Origin: Escherichia coli | GTDB taxonomy: Bacteria > Pseudomonadota > Gammaproteobacteria > Enterobacterales > Enterobacteriaceae | Direction: 5' to 3' (one strand) | Length of the DNA stretch: 64,000 nt | NCBI RefSeq assembly: GCF_030384885.1 | Contig: NZ_CP128613.1 | In this document: positions 11,431 to 44,723 of the stretch, piece after piece | Layout: each line of letters starts with the position of its first letter | Position numbering within the stretch: position 1 is the stretch's first letter | Notes under the pieces: model-generated | Database searches by the model: none | Seen by the model: only the letters and a program-made list of their open reading frames with translations | What the model was told of the DNA's origin: nothing | Translations under genes and position numbers: made by a program

Positions 11431-11691
11431 AACTCCATGAATACTGTGGTATGTCTTATTAATCCTGAAAGTATTTCATAGGTTTTCTTAATCGATTGTA
11501 GAGGTATGTTCTGATAACGCCTCTACAATCTCTAGGGATTTTTTCTACTTTGAGATAAGAAATTTCATATTATGCCTTAAGGCTGAATGATTTGTGCAAA
11601 ATATAATTGTTTTTCCATCGAACATGAGGTGTATGTCATAAGATTAAATATTAACTACGTATTCCTCGCGGTGAATAGCATGAGGTAAAAA

Positions 11692-25862: not shown

Positions 25863-26590
25863 AACATCCCTCCGTTGATGGAAATAACCTGGCGGGTGAC
25901 GTAACCCGCAATATCAGACATTAAATAGCTGGCAAGCCCGGCAACTTCTTCCGCCTGGCCCATGCGTTTCATGGGGATCATCGACATTGCCTCTTTCAGA
26001 GCGCTCTCTTCCATTTCGATCATCCCGGTATCAATAAGCCCCGGCGCGATGCAGTTGACGGTGATTTTGCGCTTCGCGAGTTCGATAGCCAGTGCTTTTG
26101 TTGCGCCGATAATTCCGGCTTTGGCAGCGCTGTAGTTCACCTGGCCGCGATTGCCCATTACGCCGGAAACCGAGGACAGCGTGATGATGCGTCCACCCTG
26201 GCGTGCGCCGATCATCGGCATAATGCACGGCTGAATGACGTTGTAGAAACTGTCGAGGTTGGTGTGGATCACCGCATCCCAGTCGTCATCGCTTAAAGCC
26301 GGAAAAGCGGCATCGCGGGCGATCCCGGCGTTACTAACCACGCCGTACCAGGCACCGTGTTGCGCGATCTCGTGCTCCAGCACTTCCCGACACTGTTCGC
26401 GGTTTGCGACGTCGAAACTGAGCAAACGCCCGTTACCACCGTTGGCGACAATGGTATTCAGCGTTTCCTGAGCGCCTGTGGCGTCACGGTGATAGTGAAC
26501 GCCAATATTAAAGCCGTCTGCCGCCAGTTGGCAGGCGATGGCGCGACCAATGCCTTTGCTGGCACCAGTAACCAGAACTGAACGACTCAT
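25859..26590 (-). CDS. 3-oxoacyl-ACP reductase, SDR family (tentatively ApeQ-like)
   Basis: 243 aa; TGASKGIGRAIA cofactor-binding motif and YSAAK catalytic YxxxK. Confidence 0.85.
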   Translation of the reverse strand: MSRSVLVTGASKGIGRAIACQLAADGFNIGVHYHRDATGAQETLNTIVANGGNGRLLSFDVANREQCREVLEHEIAQHGAWYGVVSNAGIARDAAFPALSDDDWDAVIHTNLDSFYNVIQPCIMPMIGARQGGRIITLSSVSGVMGNRGQVNYSAAKAGIIGATKALAIELAKRKITVNCIAPGLIDTGMIEMEESALKEAMSMIPMKRMGQAEEVAGLASYLMSDIAGYVTRQVISINGGML

Positions 26591-27054
26591 CAGGACGCTC
26601 CTTGTTGAAACAGGGTGGTAAGTTCTTCCGCGGTCGGCTGGAAGGTGTTAATGCGGCCCGTTGCCTCGCCGTCGTTGATGCTGCACTCAAAACTACCGAA
26701 GCGTTCATCTTGCATCAGCAGTTTGACGGTAATGGTCAGCGTCTGGCCTGCGGGCAGAATGCCAGCGGCGCAAAGCAATTCACGCGCGCCCAGTACCATC
26801 CCTAACTCAATACTGTTTTTGCCCTGCTGGTGGCGATGCCAGCCAGACCAGACGCCGACGGTTTGCGCCATCAGTTCAAGGGCAAACCAGCCAGGGAGAT
26901 TGCCGTCCGGGTCGAGAAACGGTGCCAGTACACCACTGGGCGAAACCGTCACGCGGCACACGGCGCTGTCATCGCTGACGCTCACCACTTCTTCCAGCAG
27001 CAACATGGGCGCATCGTGGGGCAGATAAGCGCCGGGTGATAAATAGTGGCTCAC
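26590..27054 (-). CDS. hotdog-fold 3-hydroxyacyl-ACP dehydratase-like protein (tentatively ApeP-like)
   Basis: 154-aa ORF, 1-nt overlap with the reductase start; size and position fit a FabA/FabZ-like dehydratase. Confidence 0.65.
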   Translation of the reverse strand: MSHYLSPGAYLPHDAPMLLLEEVVSVSDDSAVCRVTVSPSGVLAPFLDPDGNLPGWFALELMAQTVGVWSGWHRHQQGKNSIELGMVLGARELLCAAGILPAGQTLTITVKLLMQDERFGSFECSINDGEATGRINTFQPTAEELTTLFQQGAS

Positions 27055-28229
27055 GAAACCCTCCCGAGCAGAATGCTGGCGTTATTGCCGCCAAAGGCGA
27101 AGGAATTGGACAGGATCACCGGACGTGCCAGCGGCTGTGGTTTTTCGATAATGCCGCACGGTGGCAGCGTGGGATCGCGTGGCGACAGGCTGAAGTCCTG
27201 AGCGGGCAGCGGTAAATCACGCTGTAAGATCAACATACTGATTGCCGCCTCGGTAATGCCCGCCGCGCCCAGCGTGTGTCCGGTCAAATGTTTGGTGGAG
27301 CTGCACGGTACGCGTTCGCCAAACAGGGCGTTAACCACTATTGATTCAATCTGGTCGTTGAGTTGTGTGGCGGTGCCGTGCAGGTTGATATAGCCGACGT
27401 CATCTGGCGTAAGCTGCGCATCGGTCAGCGCCTGGTTAATAGCGCGGATTGCCCCTTCGCCCTGCGGATGCGGGGCCGAAATATGGTAAGCGTCGCTCGA
27501 TTCACCAACGCCCAGTAACGCGATGGGCTGCGGTTCACGGGTCAGCAGCATTAGCCCCGCGCCTTCGCCAATGGTGATGCCCGCACGGTCACGACCAAAC
27601 GGCTGACATAAGGTTGGCGACAGCGATTCGAGGCTGTGAAAACCGTTAATTGGCATCCGGCTCAGGGTGTCTGCGCCACCCACAATGGCGGCATCGACCA
27701 GCCCCGCTTCGATAAGCCTGCGCCCGCTGATCATCGCTCTGGCGCTGGAAGAGCAGGCGGTTGAAAGAGTATATGCCGGGCCGTCGAGCGCCAGCCAGTG
27801 GCTGAGAAAACGCGACGGATCGCCGAGTTCCTGCTGCGCGTAGTGCCATGTGGTGCTTGGCTGCCCGTGGGTGCGCAGGTTAACGTGCGTGTCGCCTTCA
27901 TGCAGGCCGGAGGTGCTGGTGCCAAGCACAATCGCAATGCGCTCGCGGCCATATTTTGCGATGGCGTCATCAACCTGCGGCTGGATCTGCGCCAGCGCCG
28001 CCAGCAGGATCTGATTGTTGCGCGAGCGGTGCGCAGCGAATTTTTCCGGGATAAGCGGAAGCTCGCCATCCACGCCAGCCAGGACCGCCTGCGGATGCCC
28101 CTGCAACCAGCCTGCGCGTGGGCGCATTCCGGGAGCAACACCGCGAGTCAGGTTGGCTGCGATCTCATCAAGATTATTTCCCAGGGCGTTGATCATGCCA
28201 ACGGCGGAAATATAAATCATATTAGTCAC
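27051..28229 (-). CDS. beta-ketoacyl synthase (tentatively ApeO-like)
   Basis: 392 aa; Cys in STACSSS, His motifs LHGTATQ and TGHTLGAAG. Confidence 0.85.
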   Translation of the reverse strand: MTNMIYISAVGMINALGNNLDEIAANLTRGVAPGMRPRAGWLQGHPQAVLAGVDGELPLIPEKFAAHRSRNNQILLAALAQIQPQVDDAIAKYGRERIAIVLGTSTSGLHEGDTHVNLRTHGQPSTTWHYAQQELGDPSRFLSHWLALDGPAYTLSTACSSSARAMISGRRLIEAGLVDAAIVGGADTLSRMPINGFHSLESLSPTLCQPFGRDRAGITIGEGAGLMLLTREPQPIALLGVGESSDAYHISAPHPQGEGAIRAINQALTDAQLTPDDVGYINLHGTATQLNDQIESIVVNALFGERVPCSSTKHLTGHTLGAAGITEAAISMLILQRDLPLPAQDFSLSPRDPTLPPCGIIEKPQPLARPVILSNSFAFGGNNASILLGRVS

Positions 28230-28806
28230 CTAAGTATTGAATGGTGATGTGGTATTTAAAGACATGCTGCTCAATGCTGATTGGCACGCGTTTTCCTTTG
28301 CGATTCAAATAAGTGATTTCCGTGACCAGTTTGCCACTGGCGTTACGCAGTTCGCGTTTGTCACCGTTGTCGCGAAGCGTCCATCCAGCGGGGAGTTGCG
28401 GTTGCCAGGCGCTAATCGGCCAGTGGCTGAGCATCACGTCAGCCAGCACCTGACTTGCTGGCGGCAATTGTGGGACGACGATGGATTGCTCGGCGCGTAG
28501 CCCTTGCGCATCGTAGGTCACCAGAAACAGACGAATGCCGACTGATGACAGTCCGGCAAGGGTGATTTTCTGGTCGTCGGCATTAAGCATCACCAACAGC
28601 GACTGGGTTTTGCCGTTGAAGCTTCCGGTCAACAGTTGCTGGGAATTGACGGCGGGCGATATCCCCGGCGCAGGCAGCGTGATGCGTGTGCCAGGTTGCA
28701 GCCACGCCTGCGGGCGTCCTTCCTGTTCCGGTTGCGAGTGGCTACAGCCGGTGAGGATAAGCGTAGCGGTCAGGGCGAATGCCCGCCAAAAGGTGGGTTT
28801 GATCAT
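28222..28806 (-). CDS. lipoprotein, DUF3261-like (tentatively ApeN-like)
   Basis: 194 aa with signal peptide and lipobox LILTGCSHS. Confidence 0.7.
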   Translation of the reverse strand: MIKPTFWRAFALTATLILTGCSHSQPEQEGRPQAWLQPGTRITLPAPGISPAVNSQQLLTGSFNGKTQSLLVMLNADDQKITLAGLSSVGIRLFLVTYDAQGLRAEQSIVVPQLPPASQVLADVMLSHWPISAWQPQLPAGWTLRDNGDKRELRNASGKLVTEITYLNRKGKRVPISIEQHVFKYHITIQYLGD

Positions 28807-31118
28807 TTTTTTGTTCTCTTTTTATCGGGCATAGCCAGCGGCGAAAGCAGGAAGGCGGTGAAAATACCGCTCACCAGCACAATGCCAAAACTGCTGATGG
28901 CCTGAGTGGCGCTGAATACCAGCATTCCCAGCGTCAGCAAGGTGGTGAGCATTGCCAGCGTGATCGCCAGTAGGGAAGTTAACGGTGTACCGCGCGAATT
29001 ACTGAAAAACAGCGTGTAGTTGATGCCGATGCCAAGCACCAGCACCAGCGCCAGCAGCGAAAAGAGATTCACCGCCTGCCCGCTCATCGCCAGCACTGCC
29101 AGACCGCAGCCCAGCGAAAGCACCGAAGGCACCAGGCTGATAAGCCCTTTGCGCCAGCCGAGGCGGGCCACTGCGCCGCAGGCAATCACTGCCAGCGCCA
29201 CCAGCAACAAACCGGTTAAGACGTGGCGGTAAAGTGCGAACAATTCATCAAAAGTGTTTTTGCGATCAACCCAGGCAATGCCCTGGTAATAGCTGGCTGT
29301 TTCCTGCAACAACGCGCTACTTTTAACCCCTTCAACCGGCACCAGTACGCCGCTTGCGCCGTTTTCCAGCGTCAGCCACAGCAGACGCCAGCCTTCACTG
29401 GCGGGGCTTGCCAGCCATTCATCGACCTTCACTGGCATGGCGTTGAGATCTGGTTTCAGCGCCGTCAGTCCGGCATTTTGCAGCGCTTTTGTTACCGTCG
29501 GGGCAGCCGTTTTCAGCAGATGTAAATCTTCCTCCTGCCGCGCCAGGGAGTTCAGCGGAATAGTGCGGTAGTTGCTGATAAGACGGTCTTTTTTCGCTTT
29601 CTCCAGCGAGGTGGTAAATTTCTCCAGCCGCCGCAATGTTTGCTGTGGCGAATCGCCGTAAACCACAAACCATTTTTGATCGACGCTTTGTCCGGTCAGG
29701 GCGGTAATGGCTTTTTCCTGCGCCAGAATATGCTGCGGCAGCGCCTGTAACTGCGAGATATCGTCATCGACGCGCAGCATTGACATCCCCGCCAGCGAAA
29801 ACAGCGCCAGCGCGACGGGCAGACCCCGCGACAGTTTTTTATTGCGCCGCCACGCCGCCAGCCAGCGCAGCATCAACGCCATCGCCGGAACCGGACGCAC
29901 CGGCAGGCCACGGCACAGCCACGGATGCCAGAACAGAACGGTCAGACAGGAGGCGCTCAACCCGACGGCGGCAAAAATCGCCATCTGGCGAATGCCGGGG
30001 AAGGGGGCGAGCATCATAATCAGATACGCCGCCACGGTGGTGAGCAGCGCCAGTAGCAAGGCATTGCGCACTTTCACCAGGCTTTGCCACGGCGAAACGT
30101 CATTGCCGTGCACCATCCGCTCGGTAAGGTAATAGAGCGTGTAGTCAGCGGAAATGCCGATAACGCTCATGCTCATCACCAGCGTCATCAGGTGTAATTC
30201 ACCGAAAATCAACAAGGTGGCGACCGTTCCCGCCAGCGCGCCAATGCCGATGGAAATCACGCAAAGCAGCAACGGGCGTAAAGAGCGGAACACCGCCACA
30301 ATCAGTAATATCACCCCCAGCAGCGTTGCCACGCCCAGGGTTGAGATATCCTGCTTCGCCTGTTGACTGGCGTAATCGCTGTAAAACACCGTGCCGCGCG
30401 AGAGCAACTGCGCCTGCGGATAACGCGTTTTCAGATCCTTTTCCAGTGTATTCAGGGTGGTGATCAGCTGGTGGGTTTGCTGCATATCAAACGACGATCC
30501 CGCCAGTTCGCCGTGCAGCAGATACCAGTAGTTGCCCTGGGGATCCTGTGTCACCAGCCAGCCGTCCATCAGCCGCAAACGCTGGCCATTTTTCGCCATC
30601 GCCAGCTGCGAGCCGCGCATTAACATCAGCGGATCATTTTGCAGCTCCTTACCGCTTACCCCGGAGAACGCAGAATAAAGCTGGGAGAGGATCCACTGCG
30701 CCTGCGCTTCGCCGCCGTTTTGCAGGCGCGTGCGGGTGTCGGGGTCAATCAGGCCGTTACGATGCTGCCAGAAAAACGCTCCCCACGCTTGCTGGCTGGC
30801 GGCATCCATTGGCCCTTTAACGTCGCCGAGCGCAGCGGATTTTTGCAGCAGCGTCAGCCATTCCTGAGCCACACTGGGATTAGCCTCTTTACCGGGGCTG
30901 ACCAGCCACACCAGTTGGCGGTCCAGACGCTGCATAAAGCCGTCATTCAGCGCCGGGGGAATATCGCCCATCGCCTGTTTGGGTAACATAGCCAGCACGC
31001 TACTGTTCAGTCGTGATTGCGGCAGCAGGATCAGCAACGCCGCCGCCATGACCAGGCAGATGATCACCCATAACAGCGCCGGGCGTTTACTGGGCGGCAA
31101 AACGTTGGCGTTCGTCAT
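28803..31118 (-). CDS. MMPL/RND-superfamily membrane exporter (tentatively ApeM-like)
   Basis: 771 aa with two blocks of TM helices separated by large soluble domains. Confidence 0.8.
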   Translation of the reverse strand: MTNANVLPPSKRPALLWVIICLVMAAALLILLPQSRLNSSVLAMLPKQAMGDIPPALNDGFMQRLDRQLVWLVSPGKEANPSVAQEWLTLLQKSAALGDVKGPMDAASQQAWGAFFWQHRNGLIDPDTRTRLQNGGEAQAQWILSQLYSAFSGVSGKELQNDPLMLMRGSQLAMAKNGQRLRLMDGWLVTQDPQGNYWYLLHGELAGSSFDMQQTHQLITTLNTLEKDLKTRYPQAQLLSRGTVFYSDYASQQAKQDISTLGVATLLGVILLIVAVFRSLRPLLLCVISIGIGALAGTVATLLIFGELHLMTLVMSMSVIGISADYTLYYLTERMVHGNDVSPWQSLVKVRNALLLALLTTVAAYLIMMLAPFPGIRQMAIFAAVGLSASCLTVLFWHPWLCRGLPVRPVPAMALMLRWLAAWRRNKKLSRGLPVALALFSLAGMSMLRVDDDISQLQALPQHILAQEKAITALTGQSVDQKWFVVYGDSPQQTLRRLEKFTTSLEKAKKDRLISNYRTIPLNSLARQEEDLHLLKTAAPTVTKALQNAGLTALKPDLNAMPVKVDEWLASPASEGWRLLWLTLENGASGVLVPVEGVKSSALLQETASYYQGIAWVDRKNTFDELFALYRHVLTGLLLVALAVIACGAVARLGWRKGLISLVPSVLSLGCGLAVLAMSGQAVNLFSLLALVLVLGIGINYTLFFSNSRGTPLTSLLAITLAMLTTLLTLGMLVFSATQAISSFGIVLVSGIFTAFLLSPLAMPDKKRTKK

Positions 31119-31692
31119 CGGTCAGTTGCGCTGGCGTCAGTTGATGTTGGGTAAGAGCGATATCGGTGCGATCGTCCTGTTTATCATTAAGCTGAATGCT
31201 CTCCAGATAGGTTTGCCCGGCGAGATCGATGGTATTGAAAATTTTATCCAGCGGCGTGGTGGTCGGCGTCAGGCGCAGCGTCCAGCGGCCTTCGCCTTTG
31301 TCAGCAAATTCGACGCGGAAGTTTTGTTCCAGCACTTTGCGATCGGCCTGGAACAGCGCGCGCAGCAGGTGGTTAAACTGGAACATCTGCGGGTTATTTT
31401 CTGCCGTGATGATTTGTGGCGGCTGACCGTTGATCACCTGCACCATGCGTTTATCGTCCAGCAATAGCTGCATGGGAAATGGTGAGGTTTGATCCCACAA
31501 TAACCCCTGGTCGCGGGCGATCAACATCTGGCCCTGAGATCGCAGCGGCTGCGGCAGATCTTTAATCGTCCGGGTTTGATCAAAATGGGCGCGGATCACC
31601 GGCTGTTCGGTAAAGCGTTGCTGAAGATCGTCCAGGGTCAGGGCGCTCACAAACGGGCTAATCAGCAGCGCCAGCAGCGGTAAAAATTTCAT
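31087..31692 (-). CDS. LolA-like periplasmic lipoprotein-carrier protein (tentatively ApeL-like)
   Basis: 201 aa with signal peptide MKFLPLLALLISPFVSA; start overlaps the upstream stop (ATGA). Confidence 0.65.
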   Translation of the reverse strand: MKFLPLLALLISPFVSALTLDDLQQRFTEQPVIRAHFDQTRTIKDLPQPLRSQGQMLIARDQGLLWDQTSPFPMQLLLDDKRMVQVINGQPPQIITAENNPQMFQFNHLLRALFQADRKVLEQNFRVEFADKGEGRWTLRLTPTTTPLDKIFNTIDLAGQTYLESIQLNDKQDDRTDIALTQHQLTPAQLTDDERQRFAAQ

Positions 31693-32111
31693 GGTTTGAC
31701 TCCCATGCGTTCAAACAGAATATCGGGGCTGACAAAGCACAGTTCGCGGCTTTGCTCGTCGACCGCGACCTGAATGGTGTATCCGGTGGTGGCGCGTTTG
31801 CCCGTTTCGGCATCGAAAATCTGATAGCCAATTCGCAGGCGGTTTTCGAACTCTTCGATATGCGCACGCACGCGGATGCGTTGCTCAAAGGTGAGGGCGT
31901 GGCGATATTTCACCCGCGCATCGACCACTGGCCACAAATAACCCGACTCTTTCATCTGCCGATAGCCGTAATTGAACTGGTTGAGCAGCGCCTCGCGGGC
32001 CACTTCAAAGTAGCGAAAATAGTTACCGTGCCAGGCCACGCCCATCATATCGACGTCGTGAAATGGAATGATCAGCTCGACTTCAGCGGTAAATCGGGGA
32101 TCGTTAAGCAC
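31689..32111 (-). CDS. hotdog-fold acyl thioesterase, 4HBT/YbgC-like (tentatively ApeK-like)
   Basis: 140 aa; PFHDVDMMGVAWHGNYFRYFE resembles the 4HBT active-site region. Confidence 0.75.
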   Translation of the reverse strand: MLNDPRFTAEVELIIPFHDVDMMGVAWHGNYFRYFEVAREALLNQFNYGYRQMKESGYLWPVVDARVKYRHALTFEQRIRVRAHIEEFENRLRIGYQIFDAETGKRATTGYTIQVAVDEQSRELCFVSPDILFERMGVKP

Positions 32112-32114
32112 CCT

Positions 32115-33791
32115 TTACTCCTTGTCCTGGACTTCCGGCAGTTGCCAGAAATCGAAAAAATTAAACCAGTCGAGGGGCGACTGGAGCGCGTGATGTTCCA
32201 GACGCGCGGCGTAATGATCGATAGCGTTTTGCAGCGCCTGCTGGCGTTCGCCACGCGGCAACAGCAGCGGGTCGGCAAAGGTTTCGCAGTGAATATGCAG
32301 CTTGCCGTGCTGGCGCAGGGCGAAAATCAGATTCACCGGGCAGCGCAAAATAGAGGCGAGAATAAACGGCCCCTGTGGGAAGGGCGCAGGCTGGCCCATA
32401 AACGGACTCCAGCAGACGCGCCAGTCGCCGCCGCGTTGCGGGTTGATGGCGATGCGGTCAGCAACAATCGCCACCCATTCGCCGTTATCCAGCTTCTCTT
32501 TTAGCAGGATGGCGGTGTCCGGGCCGATATCCGTCACCGGGAGCAGGTTGATGCCTGCCTGCGGGGCCATCTCCTGCATTATCTGTTTAAAACGTTGGGC
32601 GTTTTCGCTAAACACCAGCGCGTTAATGGTTTTGTAGCCCTGAATTTTTGCCAGCGCCCGGCACACTTCCACATCGCCAAGATGCGAGGCCAGCAGCAAT
32701 TTGCCGCGCGGATCGCTGACGTTAAGTGCCGCTTCTGCGCCTGGTGCAAACAGCACATCACGCCCGAGTTGCAGCTCGCCGCGCCAACTGGCGATTTTGT
32801 CGAGCATGGCGTTGCCGAAACGTAGAAAGTGCTGATAGCTGTTGAGTTTTGCTGCCTGTGGTTGATGCTGGCGCACACGGGCGAGCCAGTCTTGCGACGC
32901 TTTGCGCGCCCGGCTGGCGGTGAGCCAGTAGACGCCCACCACCGGGTAAAGCAGCGCGGTAAACGCCGTTCTTCCCAGCAGGCGCCAGACCAGCAGCATC
33001 AGGCGCATTCCCCATAATCCTTTCACTTCGCTCTGCCGCGCCCAGTGGCTGGAAGAGTGGCGCATCAGCAGCGAAGGAATACGCGGCAACATGCCGAAAA
33101 ACAGGCGCGTGTGCATGAGCGAGATGCGGACGTTATCTTTCAGGGCATCAAAGTGCGAAAGCCCGTCCAGCGGATAGGTGACGCGAGTCGGCACGAAATA
33201 GCTGGTGTTTCCCTGCCAGTAGAGGCGCACCATCACTTCGGTGTCGAAATCCATCCGCTTGCCGATGGTGGCGTGTTTTGCCAGTTGCAGCGTTGGCGCA
33301 ACCGGATAAACGCGAAAGCCGCACATGCTGTCTTTCAGTTGCAGGGAGAGCGTTTCGATCCACACCCAGACGTGGGTGACCCAGCGCCCGTACAGCCGTG
33401 AGCGGGGGATGGAGTCATCGTAAATTGGCTGGCCGGAGATCAGTGCCGCAGGGTGTTGTTCAGCGAGTGCCAGCAGTTTGGGGATATCTTCAATCGCGTG
33501 CTGACCGTCGGCATCCACCTGTACCGCATGGCTGAACCCCGCGTCTGCCGCTGCCTGTAAGCCGCGCATTACCGCCGCGCCTTTGCCTGCGTTTTCTGCC
33601 AGGCGAATTAATGTCACGCCAGGCTGTTCGGCAACCAGATTATCCAGTTGCTGTTGCGTGGCGGCATCGCTGCCGTCATCCACCACAATACAGGGCAGAT
33701 TAAATGGCTTAAGACGCGCCAGCACGCCCGGCATCATTGCGCCGTGGTTGTAGCAGGGGATCAACACGCAGGGAGAAAAGTTTACCGACAT
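32115..33791 (-). CDS. fused family-2 glycosyltransferase / lipid-A-type acyltransferase (tentatively ApeJ-like)
   Basis: 558 aa; N-terminal VVDDGSD and QVDADGQH GT2 motifs; C-terminal half assigned by family recollection. Confidence 0.7.
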   Translation of the reverse strand: MSVNFSPCVLIPCYNHGAMMPGVLARLKPFNLPCIVVDDGSDAATQQQLDNLVAEQPGVTLIRLAENAGKGAAVMRGLQAAADAGFSHAVQVDADGQHAIEDIPKLLALAEQHPAALISGQPIYDDSIPRSRLYGRWVTHVWVWIETLSLQLKDSMCGFRVYPVAPTLQLAKHATIGKRMDFDTEVMVRLYWQGNTSYFVPTRVTYPLDGLSHFDALKDNVRISLMHTRLFFGMLPRIPSLLMRHSSSHWARQSEVKGLWGMRLMLLVWRLLGRTAFTALLYPVVGVYWLTASRARKASQDWLARVRQHQPQAAKLNSYQHFLRFGNAMLDKIASWRGELQLGRDVLFAPGAEAALNVSDPRGKLLLASHLGDVEVCRALAKIQGYKTINALVFSENAQRFKQIMQEMAPQAGINLLPVTDIGPDTAILLKEKLDNGEWVAIVADRIAINPQRGGDWRVCWSPFMGQPAPFPQGPFILASILRCPVNLIFALRQHGKLHIHCETFADPLLLPRGERQQALQNAIDHYAARLEHHALQSPLDWFNFFDFWQLPEVQDKE

Positions 33792-34165
33792 AGGCGGATC
33801 TTCCCGCTACTGGCGGTGTGGCGGGCGTCACCGTCGTGACGCTGATAACTAAAGCTCAGAATCTGGCGTTCTTCCTGCCAGCTAAGCGTGAGTGTGACGC
33901 GGTTATCCGGCAGCAATGGAGCCTGGAATTTGATGTTCTGAATGGAGTGAAAACGCCAACCGGGCGCGAGCAGGGCAAGCGCGTAACTCATCGCCCAGTC
34001 GATTTGTGCCACGCCGGGGAGTAATGGTTGTACGGCAAAATGACCGCGAAACCAGAACAGATCTGCCCTGAGATGCAAAACAATCTCAAGGTGATTCACT
34101 TGTGCCTGATGGCGCTCGATTTCATGGGGCTTCATGAAATAACTCCTGTAATTGCGCATAGACAC
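33782..34165 (-). CDS. hotdog-fold dehydratase (tentatively ApeI-like)
   Basis: 127 aa with FabZ-like GHFxxxPxxPGV-type motif (RGHFAVQPLLPGV). Confidence 0.65.
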   Translation of the reverse strand: MSMRNYRSYFMKPHEIERHQAQVNHLEIVLHLRADLFWFRGHFAVQPLLPGVAQIDWAMSYALALLAPGWRFHSIQNIKFQAPLLPDNRVTLTLSWQEERQILSFSYQRHDGDARHTASSGKIRLCR

Positions 34166-35483
34166 GCTTGTTCATACTGTTTACTGGCATTTCATCAATA
34201 ACGCGCCAGTAACGCGGAATAGCAACTGGCTCCAGCGTCGGGCGCAGTAATCGCCGCCAGGCCATTTCCTGGCTGTGCCCGCCGCCGTTTTGCCATTGCA
34301 GGCGAGCTTCGTCATCCAGCACCAGCAAAACGCCAATACTCTGACGCCCGCCGCGCGTAACGGGAACTGCCGCCGCCTCGTGAATACCGTCCAGCGCCAG
34401 CAGACGTTGTTCTACTTCCTGGAGTGAAATGCGTTTTTCTTCAATCTTAACGATGCGTCCGCGACGCCCCATCAGATGGAACTGGCCGTCTTCGCTAAAC
34501 TGCAAGATATCGTCGAGTAACAGGCCGCTATCTTCCTCCATCAGAGGTGAAAAGAGACGAAAGGCATCATCTTCGGCCTGGAACTGCATACCTGGAAAGG
34601 GCCGCCAGCGGCGTTGCTCTTGTTCGCGGTAACGCCAGGCGATGACGCCGGTTTCCGTGCTGCCGTAGATTTCATCAGGCCAGACGCGCAGCCAGCTCGC
34701 GGTGTGTTGTACGTCCTGCCACGGTAGTTCACCGCCAGCGGACAGAAGCACCTGAACGGGGGGCGGGGATAGCTGAGCATCCAGACGCTTCAAAAATGCC
34801 GGGCTGCTGATGAAGATATAGCGATGCTGATGACTCAACGCGGCAAACTGTTCGACATACCAGAGCATGGCGGCATGGAGCGGTAATCCCAGCGCCATGG
34901 GCAGGAAAACGCGAAAAGTCAGGCCGTACAAATGCTGCGGCAATACGGAACCGATGACACGACATCCGGCAAGACGTGCGCCTAATCGTTCAGCCAGCAG
35001 TTCTGCTTCACGGTCCAACAAACGAACAGGTTTAATCACCCGCTTCGGCTGCCCTGTGGAACCAGAGGTAAACAGCTCGATATAAGCGTCTGGCGCTATA
35101 GCGGCAAAGGTGAATGATTGTGTCGCGACTTGTGGGGAGCTTGCTACCAACTGCAATGAACCTTGGCAGTTAAGTTCGCTGTCGCTAAGCACACCATCGA
35201 ACAGTTCACGTTGCTCGTTAAGCTGGATGACGCGGTTATGCCCCGGAAGCACCGGTGTTTTTCCGGCGTGTAGCGTGGCGAGCAGGGCAACGATAAACAG
35301 ATAGCAGTCCTCAAAGCACAGCGCCCAGCGTTCACCTGGTTGTTGCTGTAAACGGCAGATAAGTTGCGAGACATCGTGACGCAAATCGCCCAGCGTCCAG
35401 GTGCTTTCGTCCAGCCACGCAATGGGCGTGTCATCAGAGCGTGGCGCAGTCAGCCAGCGTGCAAGCGGTAAGGTCTGCTTCAT
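34122..35483 (-). CDS. AMP-dependent synthetase/ligase (tentatively ApeH-like)
   Basis: AMP-binding motif LFTSGSTGQPKRV; start set at ATG 35483, overlapping the upstream stop (ATGA); ORF-track start 35522 is an alternative. Confidence 0.75.
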   Translation of the reverse strand: MKQTLPLARWLTAPRSDDTPIAWLDESTWTLGDLRHDVSQLICRLQQQPGERWALCFEDCYLFIVALLATLHAGKTPVLPGHNRVIQLNEQRELFDGVLSDSELNCQGSLQLVASSPQVATQSFTFAAIAPDAYIELFTSGSTGQPKRVIKPVRLLDREAELLAERLGARLAGCRVIGSVLPQHLYGLTFRVFLPMALGLPLHAAMLWYVEQFAALSHQHRYIFISSPAFLKRLDAQLSPPPVQVLLSAGGELPWQDVQHTASWLRVWPDEIYGSTETGVIAWRYREQEQRRWRPFPGMQFQAEDDAFRLFSPLMEEDSGLLLDDILQFSEDGQFHLMGRRGRIVKIEEKRISLQEVEQRLLALDGIHEAAAVPVTRGGRQSIGVLLVLDDEARLQWQNGGGHSQEMAWRRLLRPTLEPVAIPRYWRVIDEMPVNSMNKRVYAQLQELFHEAP

Positions 35484-36061
35484 GAGCGATCTCTTTTCAT
35501 CACCTGACGGCGCACCAGCCATTCACCAGCCATTAACGTCCCCATCAACAAATAAGCAATCATGCCGTTCCAGGCAGTCCATAACGACATATCGCCATGC
35601 AGCGCGGTAAAGAGGGCAATTCCGCCGTTGATGATGAAAAAGCCGCACCAGATTTGCGTGACGTGGCGGGTATAGCGCACGCCCTTTTCCGGGAGGTCTG
35701 GCTCCTGCAAACGCGCCAGCCGCTCAACAATTGGCATTGCCGACCACAGCGAACCGCCAAAAACCGCCAGCATTACCGCGTTAACCACTACCGGGTAAAA
35801 CAGCAGTAGCTGGTGCGTTTTCAACAGAAAGCTGGCAACACACAAGGCGATACCCACAACAGCGACGATTTGTGTGACGGCTTGTAGCGGCCCGGCCTGG
35901 CAACGAGTCTGGCGCAGGCGCAATAAAAGCAGCAGCGCCATCAGCGGCAACAGCCAGTGCAGGCCGTTATGTGCCAAACCAAGCCAAATCACAAACGGCC
36001 AGGCGAGCAGCAATAATCCAGTCAGCAGTTTAATAATCGGTAGCGAGCGAATGCCCGACAT
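35480..36061 (-). CDS. integral membrane protein of unknown function (tentatively ApeG-like)
   Basis: 193 aa with about 5 predicted TM helices; in-operon position. Confidence 0.6.
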   Translation of the reverse strand: MSGIRSLPIIKLLTGLLLLAWPFVIWLGLAHNGLHWLLPLMALLLLLRLRQTRCQAGPLQAVTQIVAVVGIALCVASFLLKTHQLLLFYPVVVNAVMLAVFGGSLWSAMPIVERLARLQEPDLPEKGVRYTRHVTQIWCGFFIINGGIALFTALHGDMSLWTAWNGMIAYLLMGTLMAGEWLVRRQVMKRDRS

Positions 36062-36065
36062 CAGA

Positions 36066-36317
36066 TCAGGCTTCTTGTAGCAGGCGTTCTACGGCCTCTA
36101 CGACATCCCGGACTGTACGCACTGCTTTAAACTCTTCCGGCTTGATTTTCTTACCGGTTTTCTTTTGCAGATGCACAATCATGTCAACGGCGTCGATGCT
36201 GTCCAGTTCCAGATCTTCGTACAGGCGCGCTTCAGGTTTGATGTCCTGCGGTTCGATTTCAAACAGCTTAACCAGCAGAGCTGAGACTTCCTGATAGACG
36301 GTTTGTTGTTCTGTCAT
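36066..36317 (-). CDS. acyl carrier protein
   Basis: 83 aa, acidic, with phosphopantetheine attachment motif DLELDSIDAVD. Confidence 0.85.
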   Translation of the reverse strand: MTEQQTVYQEVSALLVKLFEIEPQDIKPEARLYEDLELDSIDAVDMIVHLQKKTGKKIKPEEFKAVRTVRDVVEAVERLLQEA

Positions 36318-36328
36318 GATGGCTTTCC

Positions 36329-36586
36329 TCAGGCACGTTGTGCAGCAATAAAAGAGGCCAGAGTGGCGACAGAGAAAAAGTGCTGACGCATCTCTTCACT
36401 TTCCGCAGAAAGTACAACGCCATATTCATTTTTCACTGCCAGCCCCAGTTCCAGGGCATCGATAGAGTCCAGCCCTAAACCGTCGCCAAACAGTGGCGCG
36501 TCGGTATCGATATCATCAGGAGCCAACTCGTCCAGATTGAGGGTGCTGATGATGAGATTTTTAATTTCCAGATAAAGCGCTTGCAT
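36329..36586 (-). CDS. acyl carrier protein (second, tandem)
   Basis: 85 aa with attachment motif LGLDSIDALE. Confidence 0.85.
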   Translation of the reverse strand: MQALYLEIKNLIISTLNLDELAPDDIDTDAPLFGDGLGLDSIDALELGLAVKNEYGVVLSAESEEMRQHFFSVATLASFIAAQRA

Positions 36587-37382
36587 TATTTATTCCTGAG
36601 AGAGGTAAACAACCTTGTTGTAATTGAAGCAAAAGATGCCGGTTTAACTGCCTTGCTGCTAGCGCCGGTTCTTGTGAAGTTGCATCGTAAAATTTATTGA
36701 TTTCTACCCGCCCACGGACTTCAACCGTAAAAAGTGGCCTGGCAGGTGGAACGTCATACCATTTACTTTGTTTATCCAGCAGATGCTCGCTACAGCCGAT
36801 CGTCACGATGCGTAAATCGCTGGCGCAGCGCACGGCAATATTCGCCGCACCGCGCTGTAACGTCATTTTTTCACCAGGCTTCGTCCGCGTGCCTTCGGGG
36901 AAAATCAAGATAGTGTCGCCCTGTGCCAGTCGCTGTTGGCAACGGGGTAAGAGAGTTTCAGCTTCGCTGTTGATTAAATAATCTGCCGCCCGCACGACGC
37001 CGCCAAGAAAAGGATTTTTTAACAGCGCGCTTTTTACCAGGCAGTCAGTTTCTGGCATGACTGATGCCAGTAGTACGTAATCGATAAGCGTGGGATGATT
37101 AGCTACGACGAGGCAACCGCGTTCCTGACGTAAAATTTCAGCCCCATCAATACGATAATCCAGCACGCCAAGCCCTTTTGCGACTGTTAAAAACAGACGA
37201 AAACTGGCGGCAATGCTGCGACGCGCCAAACGACGGCGGCGGGAAGTGTTCCACACCAAAACTAACAGTACGTTAAACCACACCACAGAGAGTAGTAGTC
37301 CGCCGAGGCCAAACAGGGCAAAACACAACCCGGTCATAACCAGTCGCCATGTCCATTCCAGGCGTGACATCAGCTTACTCAT
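36561..37382 (-). CDS. PlsC-family lysophospholipid acyltransferase (tentatively ApeD-like)
   Basis: 273 aa; N-terminal TM helix, NHPTLID (HxxxxD) and FPEGTR motifs. Confidence 0.75.
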   Translation of the reverse strand: MSKLMSRLEWTWRLVMTGLCFALFGLGGLLLSVVWFNVLLVLVWNTSRRRRLARRSIAASFRLFLTVAKGLGVLDYRIDGAEILRQERGCLVVANHPTLIDYVLLASVMPETDCLVKSALLKNPFLGGVVRAADYLINSEAETLLPRCQQRLAQGDTILIFPEGTRTKPGEKMTLQRGAANIAVRCASDLRIVTIGCSEHLLDKQSKWYDVPPARPLFTVEVRGRVEINKFYDATSQEPALAARQLNRHLLLQLQQGCLPLSGINNASALSGN

Positions 37383-38125
37383 CTACGGCTCCAGCGCCAC
37401 TGTACGCGCTCACCAGGAAGTGAAAAAGCATCTGAATTTTGTAAATAGTGCTGTAAAAACAACATGCTTTGCGGCAGTGTTGTTTCATTGCCCGCAATGG
37501 CTGGCTGTGTTTCACATTGCCACTCATCGCCAGCTTCAATCACCAGCGCAACAGCATATGGCCAGGTCGGCATTTCTGCTGGGAGCTGCGGATGATAGAA
37601 CTCAGGTAGAAAGCCATCAAAATCGACCATCAACACACGCTGGTATCCCGCTTGTAGCAGGCTAAGCACTTCACTCAAACCTTGCTGGAAAGTGTCGCGA
37701 CCAGCCGAAAGCGATGACGAAACGATCGGCTGTTTGGCCGCAATGGTCAGGTTACCCACGGAAGAGTTGTGTACTGAAAGTGCAAAGTCGGTGGGGGAAA
37801 GCGCCTGTTCAGTTGCCAGTGCATGAACAATGCGGTAATTGCGCTCCAGTTCGCCATGACGACTGGTATACAAAACGGCGTCTGGCTGATGGCGGCGTAG
37901 CATTGCCAGGCCGCATTCAACAGCCAGTTTGCTGCCTGAACTGAGGCGGCGGGCGGTCATCATTGGCAGTTCACTTAATTTTGCCAACGGCGCGGCAGGG
38001 TCAATCGCCCACGGCTGGCGCGACCATGCTTGCCATTGCTGCGCTTCGCTAAGTCCAGGCGCCAGTGCCTGCCAGTCGGTAATATTTAATGTAAATTTCA
38101 TCAACGCGCGCCCGCGGTAAACCAA
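37379..38125 (-). CDS. ketosynthase-like protein without the recognisable catalytic triad; chain-length-factor-like partner (tentatively ApeC-like)
   Basis: 248 aa, start overlaps downstream-gene stop; no Cys/His KS motifs found by eye; alternative start at ATG 38101. Confidence 0.55.
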   Translation of the reverse strand: MVYRGRALMKFTLNITDWQALAPGLSEAQQWQAWSRQPWAIDPAAPLAKLSELPMMTARRLSSGSKLAVECGLAMLRRHQPDAVLYTSRHGELERNYRIVHALATEQALSPTDFALSVHNSSVGNLTIAAKQPIVSSSLSAGRDTFQQGLSEVLSLLQAGYQRVLMVDFDGFLPEFYHPQLPAEMPTWPYAVALVIEAGDEWQCETQPAIAGNETTLPQSMLFLQHYLQNSDAFSLPGERVQWRWSRR

Positions 38126-38141
38126 AATTATTAAGTGACGA

Positions 38142-39209
38142 TTATTTCTTTTGGCATATCAAAAGAGTATGCCCAACGCCTAAATTATCGTGGCGCTCTG
38201 CTACCTGAAATCCTGCTTTATTCAGATAGTCGTAAAATTTCTCTGCACTATAGAAACGGCTGTTACCGTTTGCCATGCAGGTGAAATAAAGTGAGGACGC
38301 GTTCAGGCTAAATGATGCTGCTTCAAACCGCTGCGCATCCCAGAACAACTCCATGATGCAAACTTTTGCGCCAGGCTTCATTACGCTGGCGATTTTGCTG
38401 AGTATGCTAATTATTTGTTCGGGTGAAAAACAGTCTAAAAATTGGCTCATCCACCAGATATCAGCCTCGCCCGGTAATGGGGCATCGCTTAGCATATCCA
38501 CCGCATGGAAATCTATGCGATCAGAAAAACCTGCATTCGCGATATTTTCTTTCGCTAGTACGATTTGTTGTGGCAGATCTAATAACGTCACGGCGATGTT
38601 TTCATTGTATTTGCAGCAACGCAAAGCCCACTTACCCGTATTGCCGCCTACATCGTACAATGTTGTGGGGTTGTTGGCGAATACATAAGGCAGTGCGGCG
38701 TTAAATGCGCCATCTGAATAGTAATGATCAAACGCAAACCAGCTTTCACGAGCGGCATCTGGTAATTGTGAAAGTGCGGGATATATCGTCGACCAGTCGC
38801 CAAATACTTTTAACCCGGACGGTTTTCCTTCATTGAGTGAATCGGCGAGGAAGAAGAGCCCCTGATAGCAGACATCCTGGGTGAAATCCATATTCACGCG
38901 AGTCATAGTGTCATGCAGGAGGTAATGACCGATTTTCGCCAGGTAATACATTCCCTCTTTACAGGTAATAATTCGCCCGCTTAAGCCCATATCTAACAGA
39001 ACGCTGGCCGCATATTCGTTGATATGGCTATGTTCGGTGATATCAGCCAGCGTTGCGCCATGTTTGCCTTGCCGATCCAGATATGAAAGTACACCCGCAT
39101 TACGTAGGCAGAGAGCTGTTTGAAAAAGCATGGGGGCAAAGGCAATGCGTTGAGCTTCGGTAATCGCATCCAGTGCGCTAAGAGAATCCTGTTCGTACAT
39201 GTTGGGCAC
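38142..39209 (-). CDS. class I SAM-dependent (O-)methyltransferase (tentatively ApeB-like)
   Basis: 355 aa; glycine-rich SAM-binding motif VGGNTGKWA. Confidence 0.75.
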   Translation of the reverse strand: MPNMYEQDSLSALDAITEAQRIAFAPMLFQTALCLRNAGVLSYLDRQGKHGATLADITEHSHINEYAASVLLDMGLSGRIITCKEGMYYLAKIGHYLLHDTMTRVNMDFTQDVCYQGLFFLADSLNEGKPSGLKVFGDWSTIYPALSQLPDAARESWFAFDHYYSDGAFNAALPYVFANNPTTLYDVGGNTGKWALRCCKYNENIAVTLLDLPQQIVLAKENIANAGFSDRIDFHAVDMLSDAPLPGEADIWWMSQFLDCFSPEQIISILSKIASVMKPGAKVCIMELFWDAQRFEAASFSLNASSLYFTCMANGNSRFYSAEKFYDYLNKAGFQVAERHDNLGVGHTLLICQKK

Positions 39210-39268
39210 AACCTGTTAAGAGGGAATTAAATTATTATCGGACCGAAGCGGCCCGACTTTAGGGGAAA

Positions 39269-39658
39269 TTACAAATCTGCGCCAGCCGACAAATTCAGTT
39301 GAATATCTTTGTCGAGATTGCGGACCCAGCGATTATAGTTTTTATGAATTTGTCCGCCTGATGCTTGCAGGTTCTGACTATTTTCATAATTGATATCGTA
39401 GCTGGATGCCGTGTAGTTAATGCGAATTTCGGCTGAATGATCGCGTGACTGTTGACGTGCTTTAATTACGCCTTGTCCGGCTTCGGACATAATCCATTTG
39501 CGTTCAACGCCAGCTTTCAGAATCGCTTTTTTCACTTGTTCCGGGGTATGACCAGCGCTGACGGTTGAGTGAACCTGATCAATTGGCGCAGTACGCGCGC
39601 AACCCGCTAAAGCACCCACAACAGCAATAGCCGCAAACCATTTCATGTAATGTCTCAT
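39269..39658 (-). CDS. small lipoprotein, first gene of the cluster transcription unit
   Basis: 129 aa; signal peptide with lipobox LAGC; lower GC than the downstream genes. Confidence 0.55.
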   Translation of the reverse strand: MRHYMKWFAAIAVVGALAGCARTAPIDQVHSTVSAGHTPEQVKKAILKAGVERKWIMSEAGQGVIKARQQSRDHSAEIRINYTASSYDINYENSQNLQASGGQIHKNYNRWVRNLDKDIQLNLSAGADL

Positions 39659-39988
39659 TAGAATCCCATTAAAGTATTGTTTTTACGAGTAAAGCAAGAT
39701 TTAACTGTAATTGCTGGCATCACTATTCTTTATTTAGCGAAAAAATTACTTGTGAGATAAGTCAGTAAGTGCACATCAGAGTAAAAATTTCTGAAATGAC
39801 TAAATTACTGCCAGCGGGGACCAACTATAAGTGAGTGAGAAAAATGAGGCAATAAAAATAACAGATTGTTATCAGTGCATTCTTTGAGAGGGATTTAATC
39901 GCTATTCGGCGTTTATATATATTTGACTTAAGGAATGGTTTTTATAAATTAATTGTCTGAATAATGTTTCTTCATTTCCTCAAATCAA
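39659..39988 (-). promoter_or_regulatory. AT-rich putative promoter/regulatory region of the biosynthetic cluster
   Basis: About 330 bp non-coding, very AT-rich (TTTATATATATTTGACTTAAGG), between the yhhT terminator and the first cluster gene. Confidence 0.4.
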
Positions 39989-40017
39989 ATGGCCACTGTT
40001 AGATAAACGGTGGCCAT
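39989..40017 (-). terminator. candidate yhhT terminator hairpin
   Basis: ATGGCCAC-n13-GTGGCCAT stem 20 bp past the yhhT stop, followed on the minus strand by TTGATTTGAGG. Confidence 0.5.
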
Positions 40018-40037
40018 TGCCTGCTCAGGAGGTGCTA

Positions 40038-44414: not shown

Positions 44415-44723
44415 ATGGATTATTTAATTCCAGTTTGTCTGGTATTGCTGGGATTGCTCGCGATCTTCACCCCCAATTGGCTGATCCCTGTTTTTATCGT
44501 CGTGGGGGGATGGCTGGGGGTACTTGCCTGGGGTTGGCTCTGGCTAATGATTTTTTTACCTTTACTTAACGGTGTCGGGCTTGCTTATGCCCTGTGGTTG
44601 ATGTTCAAAAGGCCATCCATAGCATCCCGCCTGGTTGCTGCATGCTGTGTTATCTCCGTCATTCTGATGTTAGCGCTTTATTATGCTTTCCTGACTATGC
44701 CGCCGTTCCCGCCTCAGCACTAA
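44415..44723 (+). CDS. hypothetical small hydrophobic membrane protein (102 aa)
   Basis: ORF with 3 predicted TM helices, Trp/Leu-rich, followed directly by a strong hairpin; weak ribosome-binding site. Confidence 0.35.
   Translation: MDYLIPVCLVLLGLLAIFTPNWLIPVFIVVGGWLGVLAWGWLWLMIFLPLLNGVGLAYALWLMFKRPSIASRLVAACCVISVILMLALYYAFLTMPPFPPQH

Follow-up and report, generated by a model that had tools for sequence, protein, structure and literature searches.

Three minus-strand genes in the 64,000-nucleotide stretch of Escherichia coli DNA analysed here (contig NZ_CP128613.1; hereafter, the window) are apeL, apeM and apeN, the export part of the E. coli aryl polyene (APE) cluster, and they probably serve as the envelope-transport genes of this cluster by handing a lipid from ApeM to ApeL and from ApeL to ApeN. 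Both the gene set and the transport hypothesis are already known from the literature, and the present finding is a correct re-identification: a lipid relay to the outer membrane was proposed for the APE cluster by Johnston et al. 2021 (PMC8253772, Table 1, Fig. 8), and the same transport model by Grammbitter et al. 2020 (bioRxiv 10.1101/2020.12.19.423268).

The aryl polyene locus

The whole cluster, from apeA to apeR, was delimited to positions 24633-39646 on the minus strand using the RefSeq annotation of a 99.9% identical strain, gene-by-gene tblastn against Sakai, ABU 83972/CFT073 and 80 further loci, and the CFT073 gene table. Its gene order (apeA-B-C-D-E-F-G-H-I-J-K-L-M-N-O-P-Q-R) is that of the published apeA-R table of CFT073 (PMC8253772), and it is inserted between acpT and yhhT in the E. 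coli chromosome, the same site at which the same cluster is found in O157:H7 Sakai. Over the APE stretch the window shares 99.9% DNA identity with E. coli strain 2013C-4282, whose RefSeq annotation matches: with identical boundaries, the three genes are named 'LolA family protein', 'MMPL family transporter' and 'DUF3261 domain-containing protein', and an 'ApeP family dehydratase' and an 'ApeI family dehydratase' are annotated as well.

Transcription runs from apeL through apeM to apeN, all on the minus strand. The first gene, apeL (31087-31692; 201 aa), encodes a predicted periplasmic LolA-like carrier (Pfam LolA and LolA_3); apeM (28803-31118; 771 aa) a predicted inner-membrane RND/MMPL-type transporter (Pfam MMPL and hydropathy); and apeN (28222-28806; 194 aa) a predicted outer-membrane lipoprotein (Pfam DUF3261, a lipobox LTG-C21 and a divergent LolB-like fold). 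Neighbouring genes overlap by 4 nt (apeK/apeL), 32 nt (apeL/apeM) and 4 nt (apeM/apeN, ATGA). An earlier note on this DNA, whose title gives the genes in plus-strand order, had described three consecutive overlapping genes for an RND/MMPL-type inner-membrane protein, a secreted LolA-like protein and a DUF3261 lipoprotein, and these assignments stood, the ORFs lying where it had placed them; what it had missed was the aryl polyene cluster around them and the part of the DUF3261 protein as a LolB-like partner.

All 18 ape ORFs and acpT were found intact in the window when examined gene by gene with tblastn, the ape proteins share 93-100% identity with the Sakai copy, and the sole difference between ApeM and the remaining E. 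coli copies is an indel of one codon in a periplasmic loop. These observations speak against the module being silent or non-functional in the present strain, which we regard as very unlikely, even though the Xenorhabdus doucetiae cluster is silent in laboratory conditions and required an inserted promoter, the E. coli APE work relied on heterologous expression (PMC8253772), and a consensus scan of positions 23800-40200 found no convincing promoter. The promoter and terminator scans of that region gave 15 matches against 11.0±2.9 and 27 against 19.2±5.5, respectively, which is chance level, so that they are uninformative on operon structure.

The CFT073-type cluster is the version that has been studied experimentally. 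The CFT073 cluster (c1192, c1191 and c1190; Johnston et al. 2021, PMC8253772) has the same content and the same apeK-L-M-N-O order, and ApeL, ApeM and ApeN of the window are 99, 97 and 96% identical to the CFT073-type proteins of ABU 83972, whose ApeM and ApeN carry the same WP accessions as those of CFT073. ApeM is one codon shorter here than in the CFT073 type, and identity falls to 65-82% for ApeA, ApeG, ApeH and ApeI, which have diverged far more. The insertion sites also differ: that of the window is the acpT-yhhT interval, as in Sakai, and that of the CFT073/ABU 83972 cluster an integrase-flanked island around 1.14 Mb.

Among complete E. coli genomes, 825 of 5426 contain apeL, apeM and apeN, which are real conserved genes and not chance ORFs. 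A set of 80 further loci, nearly all from Enterobacterales, was found from an 18-sequence DUF3261 alignment and compared by tblastn. The three genes were all present and in order in 77 of them, and the other three comprised two loci too short for apeL and apeM and one without an apeM match above the coverage filter. Barring the latter, the order K-L-M-N-O was seen in every sufficiently long locus, with a thioesterase gene (apeK) before the three genes and a ketosynthase gene (apeO) after them, in a type II PKS-like aryl polyene cluster. The apeL-apeM-apeN order is kept from Enterobacterales to Francisella, whose APE cluster reads thioesterase, LolA_3, MMPL, DUF3261. The distant DUF3261 representatives led only to short metagenomic contigs, informative for the adjacency of apeM and apeN and not for ApeL; in four of these contigs an ApeM-like gene lies directly upstream of a DUF3261 gene whose product is 25-35% identical to ApeN. 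Overall, the L-M-N adjacency persists down to 25-28% identity.

Predicted properties of the three proteins

ApeL has an N-terminal hydrophobic segment (residues 1-21) with a type I signal peptide (...VSA/LT, cut after VSA17), a feature shared by the ApeL homologues that were extracted, and is thus predicted to be a secreted, soluble periplasmic protein. It matched the Pfam families LolA (E=7e-11) and LolA_3 (E=4e-10), whereas its NCBIfam matches to LolA (E=8e-16) and to the flexirubin LolA2 were both under the curated cut-offs. Against the housekeeping LolA equivalog (NCBIfam TIGR00547) it scored 58 bits for a cut-off of 112, and by these scores ApeL is a paralogue within the LolA superfamily, not LolA itself.

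The earlier note had suggested structure prediction of the LolA-like protein as a check. In a Foldseek search, the AF2 model of ApeL (pLDDT 85) had its best match in PDB 8T5J (E=1e-16, TMt 0.88), followed by LolA of Pseudomonas, Xanthomonas, Francisella, Yersinia and E. coli; the matches to LolA structures ranged from E=1e-9 to 1e-16, with prob 1.00 and TM 0.6-0.9, and LprG, of the LppX family, was a weak fold match only. The model thus predicts a LolA fold, an unclosed antiparallel beta-barrel with a helical lid, and from this fold we infer a hydrophobic cavity. The 8T5J structure, deposited as Francisella philomiragia "LolA", also matched ApeL in sequence (E=1.8e-23) and, because it is encoded inside the F. 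philomiragia APE cluster, represents a solved ApeL orthologue; the PDB entries 9COZ and 9CWL have the same sequence. A literature search on this PDB code returned no relevant paper, and the protein is apparently undescribed there as an APE component.

For ApeM, hydropathy predicted 12 transmembrane (TM) helices in the RND layout (TM1, a loop of ~215 aa, TM2-6, TM7, a loop of ~175 aa, TM8-12), with the large loops, between TM1 and TM2 and between TM7 and TM8, on the periplasmic side. The Pfam MMPL match had an E=3.3e-7. NCBIfam matches to HAE3 and HpnN were weak (E about 1e-13), and the best scores (48.8, 47.7 and 28.4 bits) reached none of the cut-offs of the HpnN, HAE3 and MMPL subfamilies (352 to 875). 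On sequence grounds, ApeM belongs to the RND superfamily, yet lies outside the named HpnN, HAE3 and MMPL families; it has been placed in a separate 'APPE' family (bioRxiv 10.1101/2020.12.19.423268).

Its closest sequence match in the PDB was the hopanoid transporter HpnN (5khn, E=5e-7 over ~190 residues). Across 81 homologues, D325-Y326 of TM4 and Y701 of TM10 never vary, the former pair even at 27% identity, and N700 is replaced by Asp in a single one. Conserved relay residues in TM4 and TM10 carry protons in RND proteins, and D325 of ApeM aligns with D344 of HpnN, which we take to have a functional role.

Membership of the RND superfamily is also what would be expected if ApeM were an ordinary efflux pump that rids the cell of a toxic intermediate or soluble metabolite, with the two neighbouring genes, LolA-like and DUF3261, as unrelated passengers. 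We consider this extremely improbable. No gene for an adaptor (membrane-fusion) protein and none for an outer-membrane or TolC-like channel was found among the APE cluster genes, which ruled out ApeM as part of a tripartite RND efflux pump; the nearest relatives of ApeM are lipid shuttles (HpnN, HAE3) and not multidrug pumps; the persistent adjacency of the three genes described above does not fit passengers; and the pigment does not diffuse into the medium (PMC8253772). A nearby HlyD-family gene, yhiI, belongs to the yhiI-rbbA-yhhJ operon and is unrelated to the APE cluster.

The only Pfam match of ApeN was DUF3261 (E=3.4e-39). Its lipobox (L-T-G-C21) is followed by Ser at position +2; the lipobox Cys is present in 87 of 88 ApeN homologues and Asp at +2 in none of the 88, and with no Asp at +2 ApeN is predicted to carry sorting signals of the outer-membrane type. 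Its structure model, of high confidence, aligned with LolB at a Foldseek TM of 0.40-0.43 and shows a divergent LolB-like fold, a likeness at the fold level only. Neither the single sequence nor an 88-sequence DUF3261 profile detected LolB homology in the PDB, the profile matching lipoprotein signal peptides only, so that the link between ApeN and LolB is a structural one. An origin of ApeL and ApeN as a duplicate of the housekeeping LolA and LolB was rejected, both being under the family cut-offs and strictly cluster-linked.

A candidate lipid relay and its parallels

For orthologous clusters, experiments have established that the APE product is a lipid that stays bound to the cell, as opposed to a metabolite that diffuses away, which bears out the earlier note on this point: the pigment remains with the cells (PMC8253772), and the end product in X. 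doucetiae is an APE-GalNAc-phosphate-diacylglycerol lipid. The polyketide and lipid enzymes of the cluster would assemble an APE glycolipid at the inner membrane, which by analogy with Xenorhabdus may likewise be APE-GalNAc-phosphate-diacylglycerol. Driven by the proton gradient, ApeM would pull this lipid out of the inner membrane and offer it on the periplasmic domains; ApeL would accept the acyl and polyene chains in a hydrophobic cavity and ferry the lipid through the periplasm to ApeN, which, tethered to the outer membrane on its inner leaflet, would take the lipid over and insert it. Overall, this would amount to a private Lol-like relay for a lipid, in which an RND protein replaces the LolCDE ABC transporter. 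Our fold, topology and synteny results agree with the published transport model, and hence with the periplasmic handover to the outer membrane that the earlier note had put forward; the relay through ApeM, ApeL and ApeN itself is still what we infer.

The likeness to the Lol pathway (LolCDE to LolA to LolB) lies in the pairing of a periplasmic carrier of LolA fold with an outer-membrane receptor that has a LolB fold and a lipid anchor, as predicted for ApeL and ApeN. The two differ in the cargo, presumably a glycolipid for Ape in contrast to a lipoprotein, in the inner-membrane partner, a proton-driven RND protein in contrast to an ABC transporter, and in sequence, ApeL being under the LolA equivalog cut-off and ApeN being without sequence similarity to LolB. 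HpnN, of the HAE3 family, is the best relative of ApeM with a solved structure, the TM4 Asp being aligned in both; the two are stand-alone RND proteins of lipid biosynthesis clusters, thought to shift a lipid towards the outer membrane, although the similarity is very weak and ApeM is shorter (771 aa, compared with 883 aa). To our knowledge, HpnN has no dedicated LolA- or LolB-like partners, nor do we know of a soluble carrier in PDIM export by mycobacterial MmpL7 and LppX. In the mycobacterial system, an RND/MMPL transporter of a polyketide-lipid cluster and a lipid-binding lipoprotein bring PDIM to the surface (PMC8427324); the comparison with Ape export, also drawn by Grammbitter et al. (bioRxiv 10.1101/2020.12.19.423268), is one of analogy and not orthology, the envelope being a different one. 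LolA2 and LolB2 of the Bacteroidota flexirubin loci (PMC11885536) are a LolA/LolB-like pair in an aryl-polyene-type cluster and proposed pigment carriers; ApeL matched the NCBIfam LolA2_flexi family with E=9e-15 and 54.5 bits, below its cut-off of 125.

Accessory genes, mutant phenotypes and significance

Directly downstream of apeR lies acpT (24044-24631, minus strand), annotated as a phosphopantetheinyl transferase gene. In most of the further loci (mostly Enterobacterales), apeR is likewise followed by a gene for an AcpT homologue, and acpT is probably a functional part of the APE cluster. The gene assigned by its position as apeG (35480-36061, minus strand) encodes a small membrane protein, which has been grouped with ApeLMN as proposed transport machinery (PMC8253772; bioRxiv 10.1101/2020.12.19.423268). 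ApeG had no NCBIfam or PADLOC match, and PADLOC likewise gave none for ApeA, two DUF4049 proteins and a small ORF near tusA. The translation of apeA (39269-39646, minus strand) is a small predicted lipoprotein with a lipobox LAG-C16, annotated in Sakai as 'putative lipoprotein' and also classed as a lipoprotein by Table 1 of PMC8253772.

The presence of this predicted lipoprotein in the cluster, together with the fact that LolA and LolB normally carry lipoproteins, underlies an alternative of Johnston et al., in which the cargo of ApeL and ApeN is ApeA, possibly APE-anchored, and not a free pigment lipid. We find this highly improbable, given that the end product in X. doucetiae is a free glycolipid, that pigment intermediates are still made after apeA deletion (PMC8253772), and that normal lipoprotein release is accomplished by LolCDE and not by an RND protein. 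Moreover, when the two E. coli cluster types are compared, conservation is lowest for ApeA (65%, compared with 96-99% for ApeL, ApeM and ApeN), and the Francisella cluster, which keeps L-M-N, yielded no ApeA homologue.

The published mutants amount to part of the deletion check that the earlier note had suggested, in which loss of these genes should change where the product is found, and the outcome was unexpected. Deletion of apeM did not relocate the pigment but nearly abolished it, leaving a faint colour and almost no or no detectable APE metabolites; apeL and apeN disruptions were unpigmented, and clean, scar-free deletions of either were not obtained (PMC8253772), so that their phenotypes may be polar. 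Loss of pigment in all three cases would also be seen if ApeM, possibly with ApeL and ApeN, acted mainly as a scaffold or coupling partner in lipid assembly, with synthesis and export obligatorily coupled; such coupling has been put forward for some mycobacterial MmpL proteins, and MmpL proteins of mycobacteria have been described as scaffolds for lipid-modifying machinery (PMC8427324). We regard this reading of ApeLMN as unlikely, and find it similarly doubtful that the module is needed for biosynthesis more than for localisation. Coupled synthesis is nevertheless compatible with transport, since an export block can cost product through feedback or toxicity; the possible polarity weakens the apeL and apeN evidence for it, and an assembly confined to the cytoplasmic face would hardly account for a LolA fold that is secreted or for a lipoprotein of the outer-membrane type.

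Returning to the lipid relay from ApeM through ApeL to ApeN, the idea of such a dedicated route is already in print, and only its demonstration would be new. The additions made here are supporting details, namely the LolB-like fold of DUF3261 borne out by modelling, the invariant Asp-Tyr pair in TM4 of ApeM, and a solved ApeL orthologue that is labelled LolA. By published accounts, aryl polyene clusters are one of the most widely distributed kinds of biosynthetic gene cluster in bacteria, and their pigments reportedly confer protection from reactive oxygen species and favour biofilm formation in pathogenic E. coli (PMC8253772). For work on the lipid route to the outer membrane, ApeLMN is a reasonable experimental target. 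On balance, we lean towards ApeLMN being a self-contained, proton-driven glycolipid route to the outer membrane, which would operate independently of LolCDE, Lpt and Mla and of which 8T5J would be the first solved component.

The apeLMN genes and the aryl polyene cluster

The three overlapping genes at 28222-31692 are the ApeLMN module of the aryl polyene (APE) cluster, in agreement with it in every aspect of membership that could be tested. In order of transcription they are apeL (31692-31087, 201 aa), apeM (31118-28803, 771 aa) and apeN (28806-28222, 194 aa), all ORFs on the minus strand; apeL and apeM overlap by 32 nt, apeM and apeN by 4 nt (ATGA), and the upstream thioesterase gene overlaps apeL by 4 nt. 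RefSeq gives identical boundaries under the labels 'LolA family protein', 'MMPL family transporter' and 'DUF3261 domain-containing protein', and the ORFs, Pfam matches, lipobox and hydropathy showed that the earlier note had described the genes correctly in every particular. In the RefSeq annotation they lie within 18 co-directional genes, including two ketosynthases, a chain-length factor, two acyl carrier proteins, an AMP-binding enzyme, FabG2, 'ApeI family' and 'ApeP family' dehydratases, a methyltransferase, a lysophospholipid acyltransferase, a fused glycosyltransferase and a separate thioesterase. The content and order of this run are those of the apeA-R table of the E. coli CFT073 APE cluster (Johnston et al. 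2021, PMC8253772), in which c1192 is ApeL ('LolA-like molecular chaperone'), c1191 ApeM ('RND family transporter') and c1190 ApeN ('DUF3261 - LolB-like membrane protein'). The proteins of ABU 83972, whose ApeM and ApeN carry the WP accessions of CFT073 itself, were 99% (ApeL), 97% (ApeM) and 96% (ApeN) identical to those in the window. The 3.5-kb apeLMN stretch was 99.9% identical to that of E. coli 2013C-4282, and 822 further records matched it at 95-98% identity. Of 5426 complete E. coli genomes, 825 carried it, chromosomal every time.

With acpT and yhhT on either side, the cluster (24633-39646) occupies the site that it also has in O157:H7 Sakai (ECs_4324 to ECs_4341), whereas CFT073 and ABU 83972 carry it near 1.14 Mb on an integrase-flanked island. 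One base beyond apeR lies acpT (24044-24631), which encodes a phosphopantetheinyl transferase. It appears to have belonged to the cluster ancestrally, because most of the other clusters, the majority of them from Enterobacterales, have an AcpT homologue at this place; the CFT073-type island does not carry it. E. coli K-12 reportedly retains acpT without the cluster, an observation attributed to De Lay and Cronan (2006). Divergence between the acpT-linked and CFT073-type clusters was mosaic, with identities of 65% for ApeA, 65% for ApeH, 72% for ApeI and 82% for ApeG (33782-36061 and 39269-39646) against 94-99% for all other Ape proteins, a pattern suggesting that apeG-apeI and apeA have recombined with those of a more distant donor.

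Elsewhere the window is ordinary E. coli backbone (prlC, dtpB, pitA, the nik operon, zntA, ftsYEX, rpoH, liv genes and ugpA). A low-GC block at 8000-14000 (35-42%, versus about 55% around it) contains yhiM and two tandem paralogous DUF4049 genes (9823-11430 and 11692-13314, plus strand), neither of whose products matched in PADLOC; nor did an annotated 102-aa hypothetical protein encoded between tusA and zntA (44415-44723, plus strand). A 248-aa 'hypothetical protein' encoded between livF and ugpB (60859-61605, plus strand) has two hydrophobic segments near its N terminus, and its C-terminal part is helical and TPR-like.

The linkage of the three genes was examined by tblastn of 19 window proteins (18 Ape proteins and AcpT) against 80 loci, mostly from Enterobacterales, recovered through ApeN. 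The order K-L-M-N-O was present in every locus that was long enough, except one with no ApeM match above the filter, and ApeL identity ranged from 58 to 99%. Four short metagenomic contigs encoded DUF3261 proteins only 25-35% identical to ApeN; all four had an ApeM-like gene directly upstream, and an ApeO-like ketosynthase directly downstream wherever the contig extended. The order L-M-N is kept in Francisella too. Taken together, these loci show apeL, apeM and apeN to be a conserved unit of the APE cluster family. One contig, labelled Chryseobacterium sp. 18061 (CACSKA010000004.1), carried an Enterobacteriaceae-type APE cluster with AcpT, whose proteins had about 80% identity to those of the window. 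This contig closely parallels another of the same project, labelled 'Citrobacter sp. 18056', and looks like a mislabelled or contaminated assembly.

Fold and family of ApeL, ApeN and ApeM

The secreted LolA-like protein described in the earlier note was recovered as ApeL by its Pfam matches (LolA, E = 7e-11; LolA_3, E = 4e-10) and its type I signal peptide, with cleavage between MKFLPLLALLISPFVSA and LT. The structure prediction that had been proposed as a check gave an AlphaFold2 model (20 sequences, mean pLDDT 85) with an N-terminal helix, eleven strands and a helical insert. Its top Foldseek match in the PDB was 8T5J (E = 1.2e-16, target-normalised TM 0.88), followed by LolA of Pseudomonas, Xanthomonas, Francisella tularensis, Yersinia, Vibrio and E. 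coli, all with probability 1.00; 8T5J was also the sole significant PDB match of the sequence (E = 1.8e-23). Identification of ApeL as the housekeeping LolA was rejected, as ApeL scored 58 bits against an NCBIfam LolA cut-off of 112; the cut-off for flexirubin LolA2 was not reached either (54.5 versus 125 bits). ApeL is a LolA-superfamily paralogue that has the LolA fold.

The entry 8T5J was deposited as 'LolA from Francisella philomiragia', and no mention of it was found in the literature searched. Its gene (10001-10585 of the F. philomiragia locus) belongs to a complete APE-type cluster, where this LolA_3 gene comes after that for a 4HBT thioesterase and before those for an MMPL and then a DUF3261 protein, with the other ape functions all nearby; tblastn with the window's proteins recognised ApeC through ApeR, while ApeA was not detected. 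Because it is encoded in this cluster, the crystallized protein (8T5J, 9COZ and 9CWL) is the F. philomiragia ApeL orthologue and not the housekeeping LolA, so that an experimental structure of the carrier already exists.

ApeN was confirmed as a DUF3261 lipoprotein (Pfam E = 3.4e-39) with the lipobox LTG-C21 followed by Ser. Its AlphaFold2 model (mean pLDDT 92.9, pTM 0.84) had V. cholerae LolB as top Foldseek match (E = 3.3e-5), with TM-scores of only 0.40-0.43, and the DUF3261 family sequence profile found no LolB in the PDB. ApeN thus shares a LolB-like fold and a lipoprotein anchor with LolB but not sequence membership, and it is best placed in the LolA/LolB fold superfamily, as a divergent member whose nearest relatives of solved structure are LolB proteins. 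DUF3261 representatives were gathered (760 at 50% clustering), and 87 full-length sequences were aligned with the ApeN query. The lipobox Cys was present in 87 of these 88 diverse homologues, and the +2 residue was mostly Ala, Ser, Thr, Gln or Gly, and Asp in none. By the established rule for lipoprotein sorting in E. coli, an outer-membrane location is therefore predicted for ApeN.

The RND/MMPL-type assignment of ApeM was borne out by Pfam (MMPL, E = 3.3e-7, residues 252-402) and by a classic RND hydropathy plan, with TM1 at 10-38, a periplasmic loop of about 215 residues, TM2-6 at 256-400, TM7 at 432-450, a second loop of about 175 residues and TM8-12 at 626-764. The best solved relatives were structures of the Burkholderia hopanoid transporter HpnN (5khn, E = 5e-7; 6wu0, E = 1.9e-5), and NCBIfam gave weak matches to HAE3, HpnN, BstA and MMPL, far under their cut-offs. 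ApeM falls in the RND superfamily, with HpnN and HAE3 nearest to it, but outside those curated families. In the HMMER alignment its D325 is paired with HpnN D344, which is reported in the HpnN structure paper to belong to the proton relay. G321, S323, D325, Y326, Y330 and Y701 did not vary among 81 ApeM homologues, one of them the Francisella protein with 27% identity, and N700 was replaced by Asp in one of the 81. These residues resemble the motifs for TM4/TM10 coupling in MmpL-type RND proteins, in which TM4 and TM10 are described as the proton-coupling elements (PMC8427324). The family of ApeM has been named APPE in the literature (bioRxiv 10.1101/2020.12.19.423268). A role in a tripartite efflux pump was rejected, as no membrane-fusion or TolC-like gene is annotated among the APE cluster genes. 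ApeM has 771 aa in the window versus 772 aa in Sakai, ABU 83972/CFT073 and Escherichia sp. E1V33, owing to a single-codon indel in the second periplasmic loop (residue ~612, window ~29283).

Proposed transport of the aryl polyene lipid

In the published model, ApeD and ApeJ join the APE carboxylic acid to a lipid anchor, the product leaves the cytoplasmic membrane via ApeM, and the Lol homologues ApeL and ApeN deliver it to the outer membrane (PMC8253772 Fig. 8; bioRxiv 10.1101/2020.12.19.423268). The earlier note, which had proposed a lipid handed across the periplasm to the outer membrane, was thus right in both its finding and its interpretation; the gene set and the hypothesis were already known. 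The same kind of carriage has been proposed for LolA2 and LolB2 of the flexirubin loci of Bacteroidota (PMC11885536). Our predicted structures and sequence comparisons support each structural premise of the model. By functional analogy with the Lol pathway, an RND protein would take the place of LolCDE and a lipid that of the lipoprotein; the other closest analogy would be mycobacterial MmpL7 and LppX for PDIM (PMC8427324).

Johnston et al. (PMC8253772) raised the lipoprotein ApeA as the cargo of the Lol-like pair, which is unlikely given that ApeA is the least conserved protein in the cluster and escaped detection by tblastn in the Francisella cluster, and that the known end products, the APE-GalNAc-phosphate-glycerol lipids with two acyl chains of X. 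doucetiae, are free glycolipids. The genetic data are less tidy than the earlier note had assumed in proposing deletion of the export genes as a test. An apeM deletion strain contained almost no APE metabolites, and it was not possible to delete apeL or apeN cleanly; the marked mutants were unpigmented, possibly through polar effects (PMC8253772). Because of these phenotypes, a role in which synthesis and export are coupled is a live alternative.

The remaining value of the locus would lie in the proposed transport mechanism, for which the existing crystal structure of the ApeL orthologue (8T5J, 9COZ, 9CWL) and the invariant D325-Y326 pair of ApeM, as a mutagenesis target, are practical leads.
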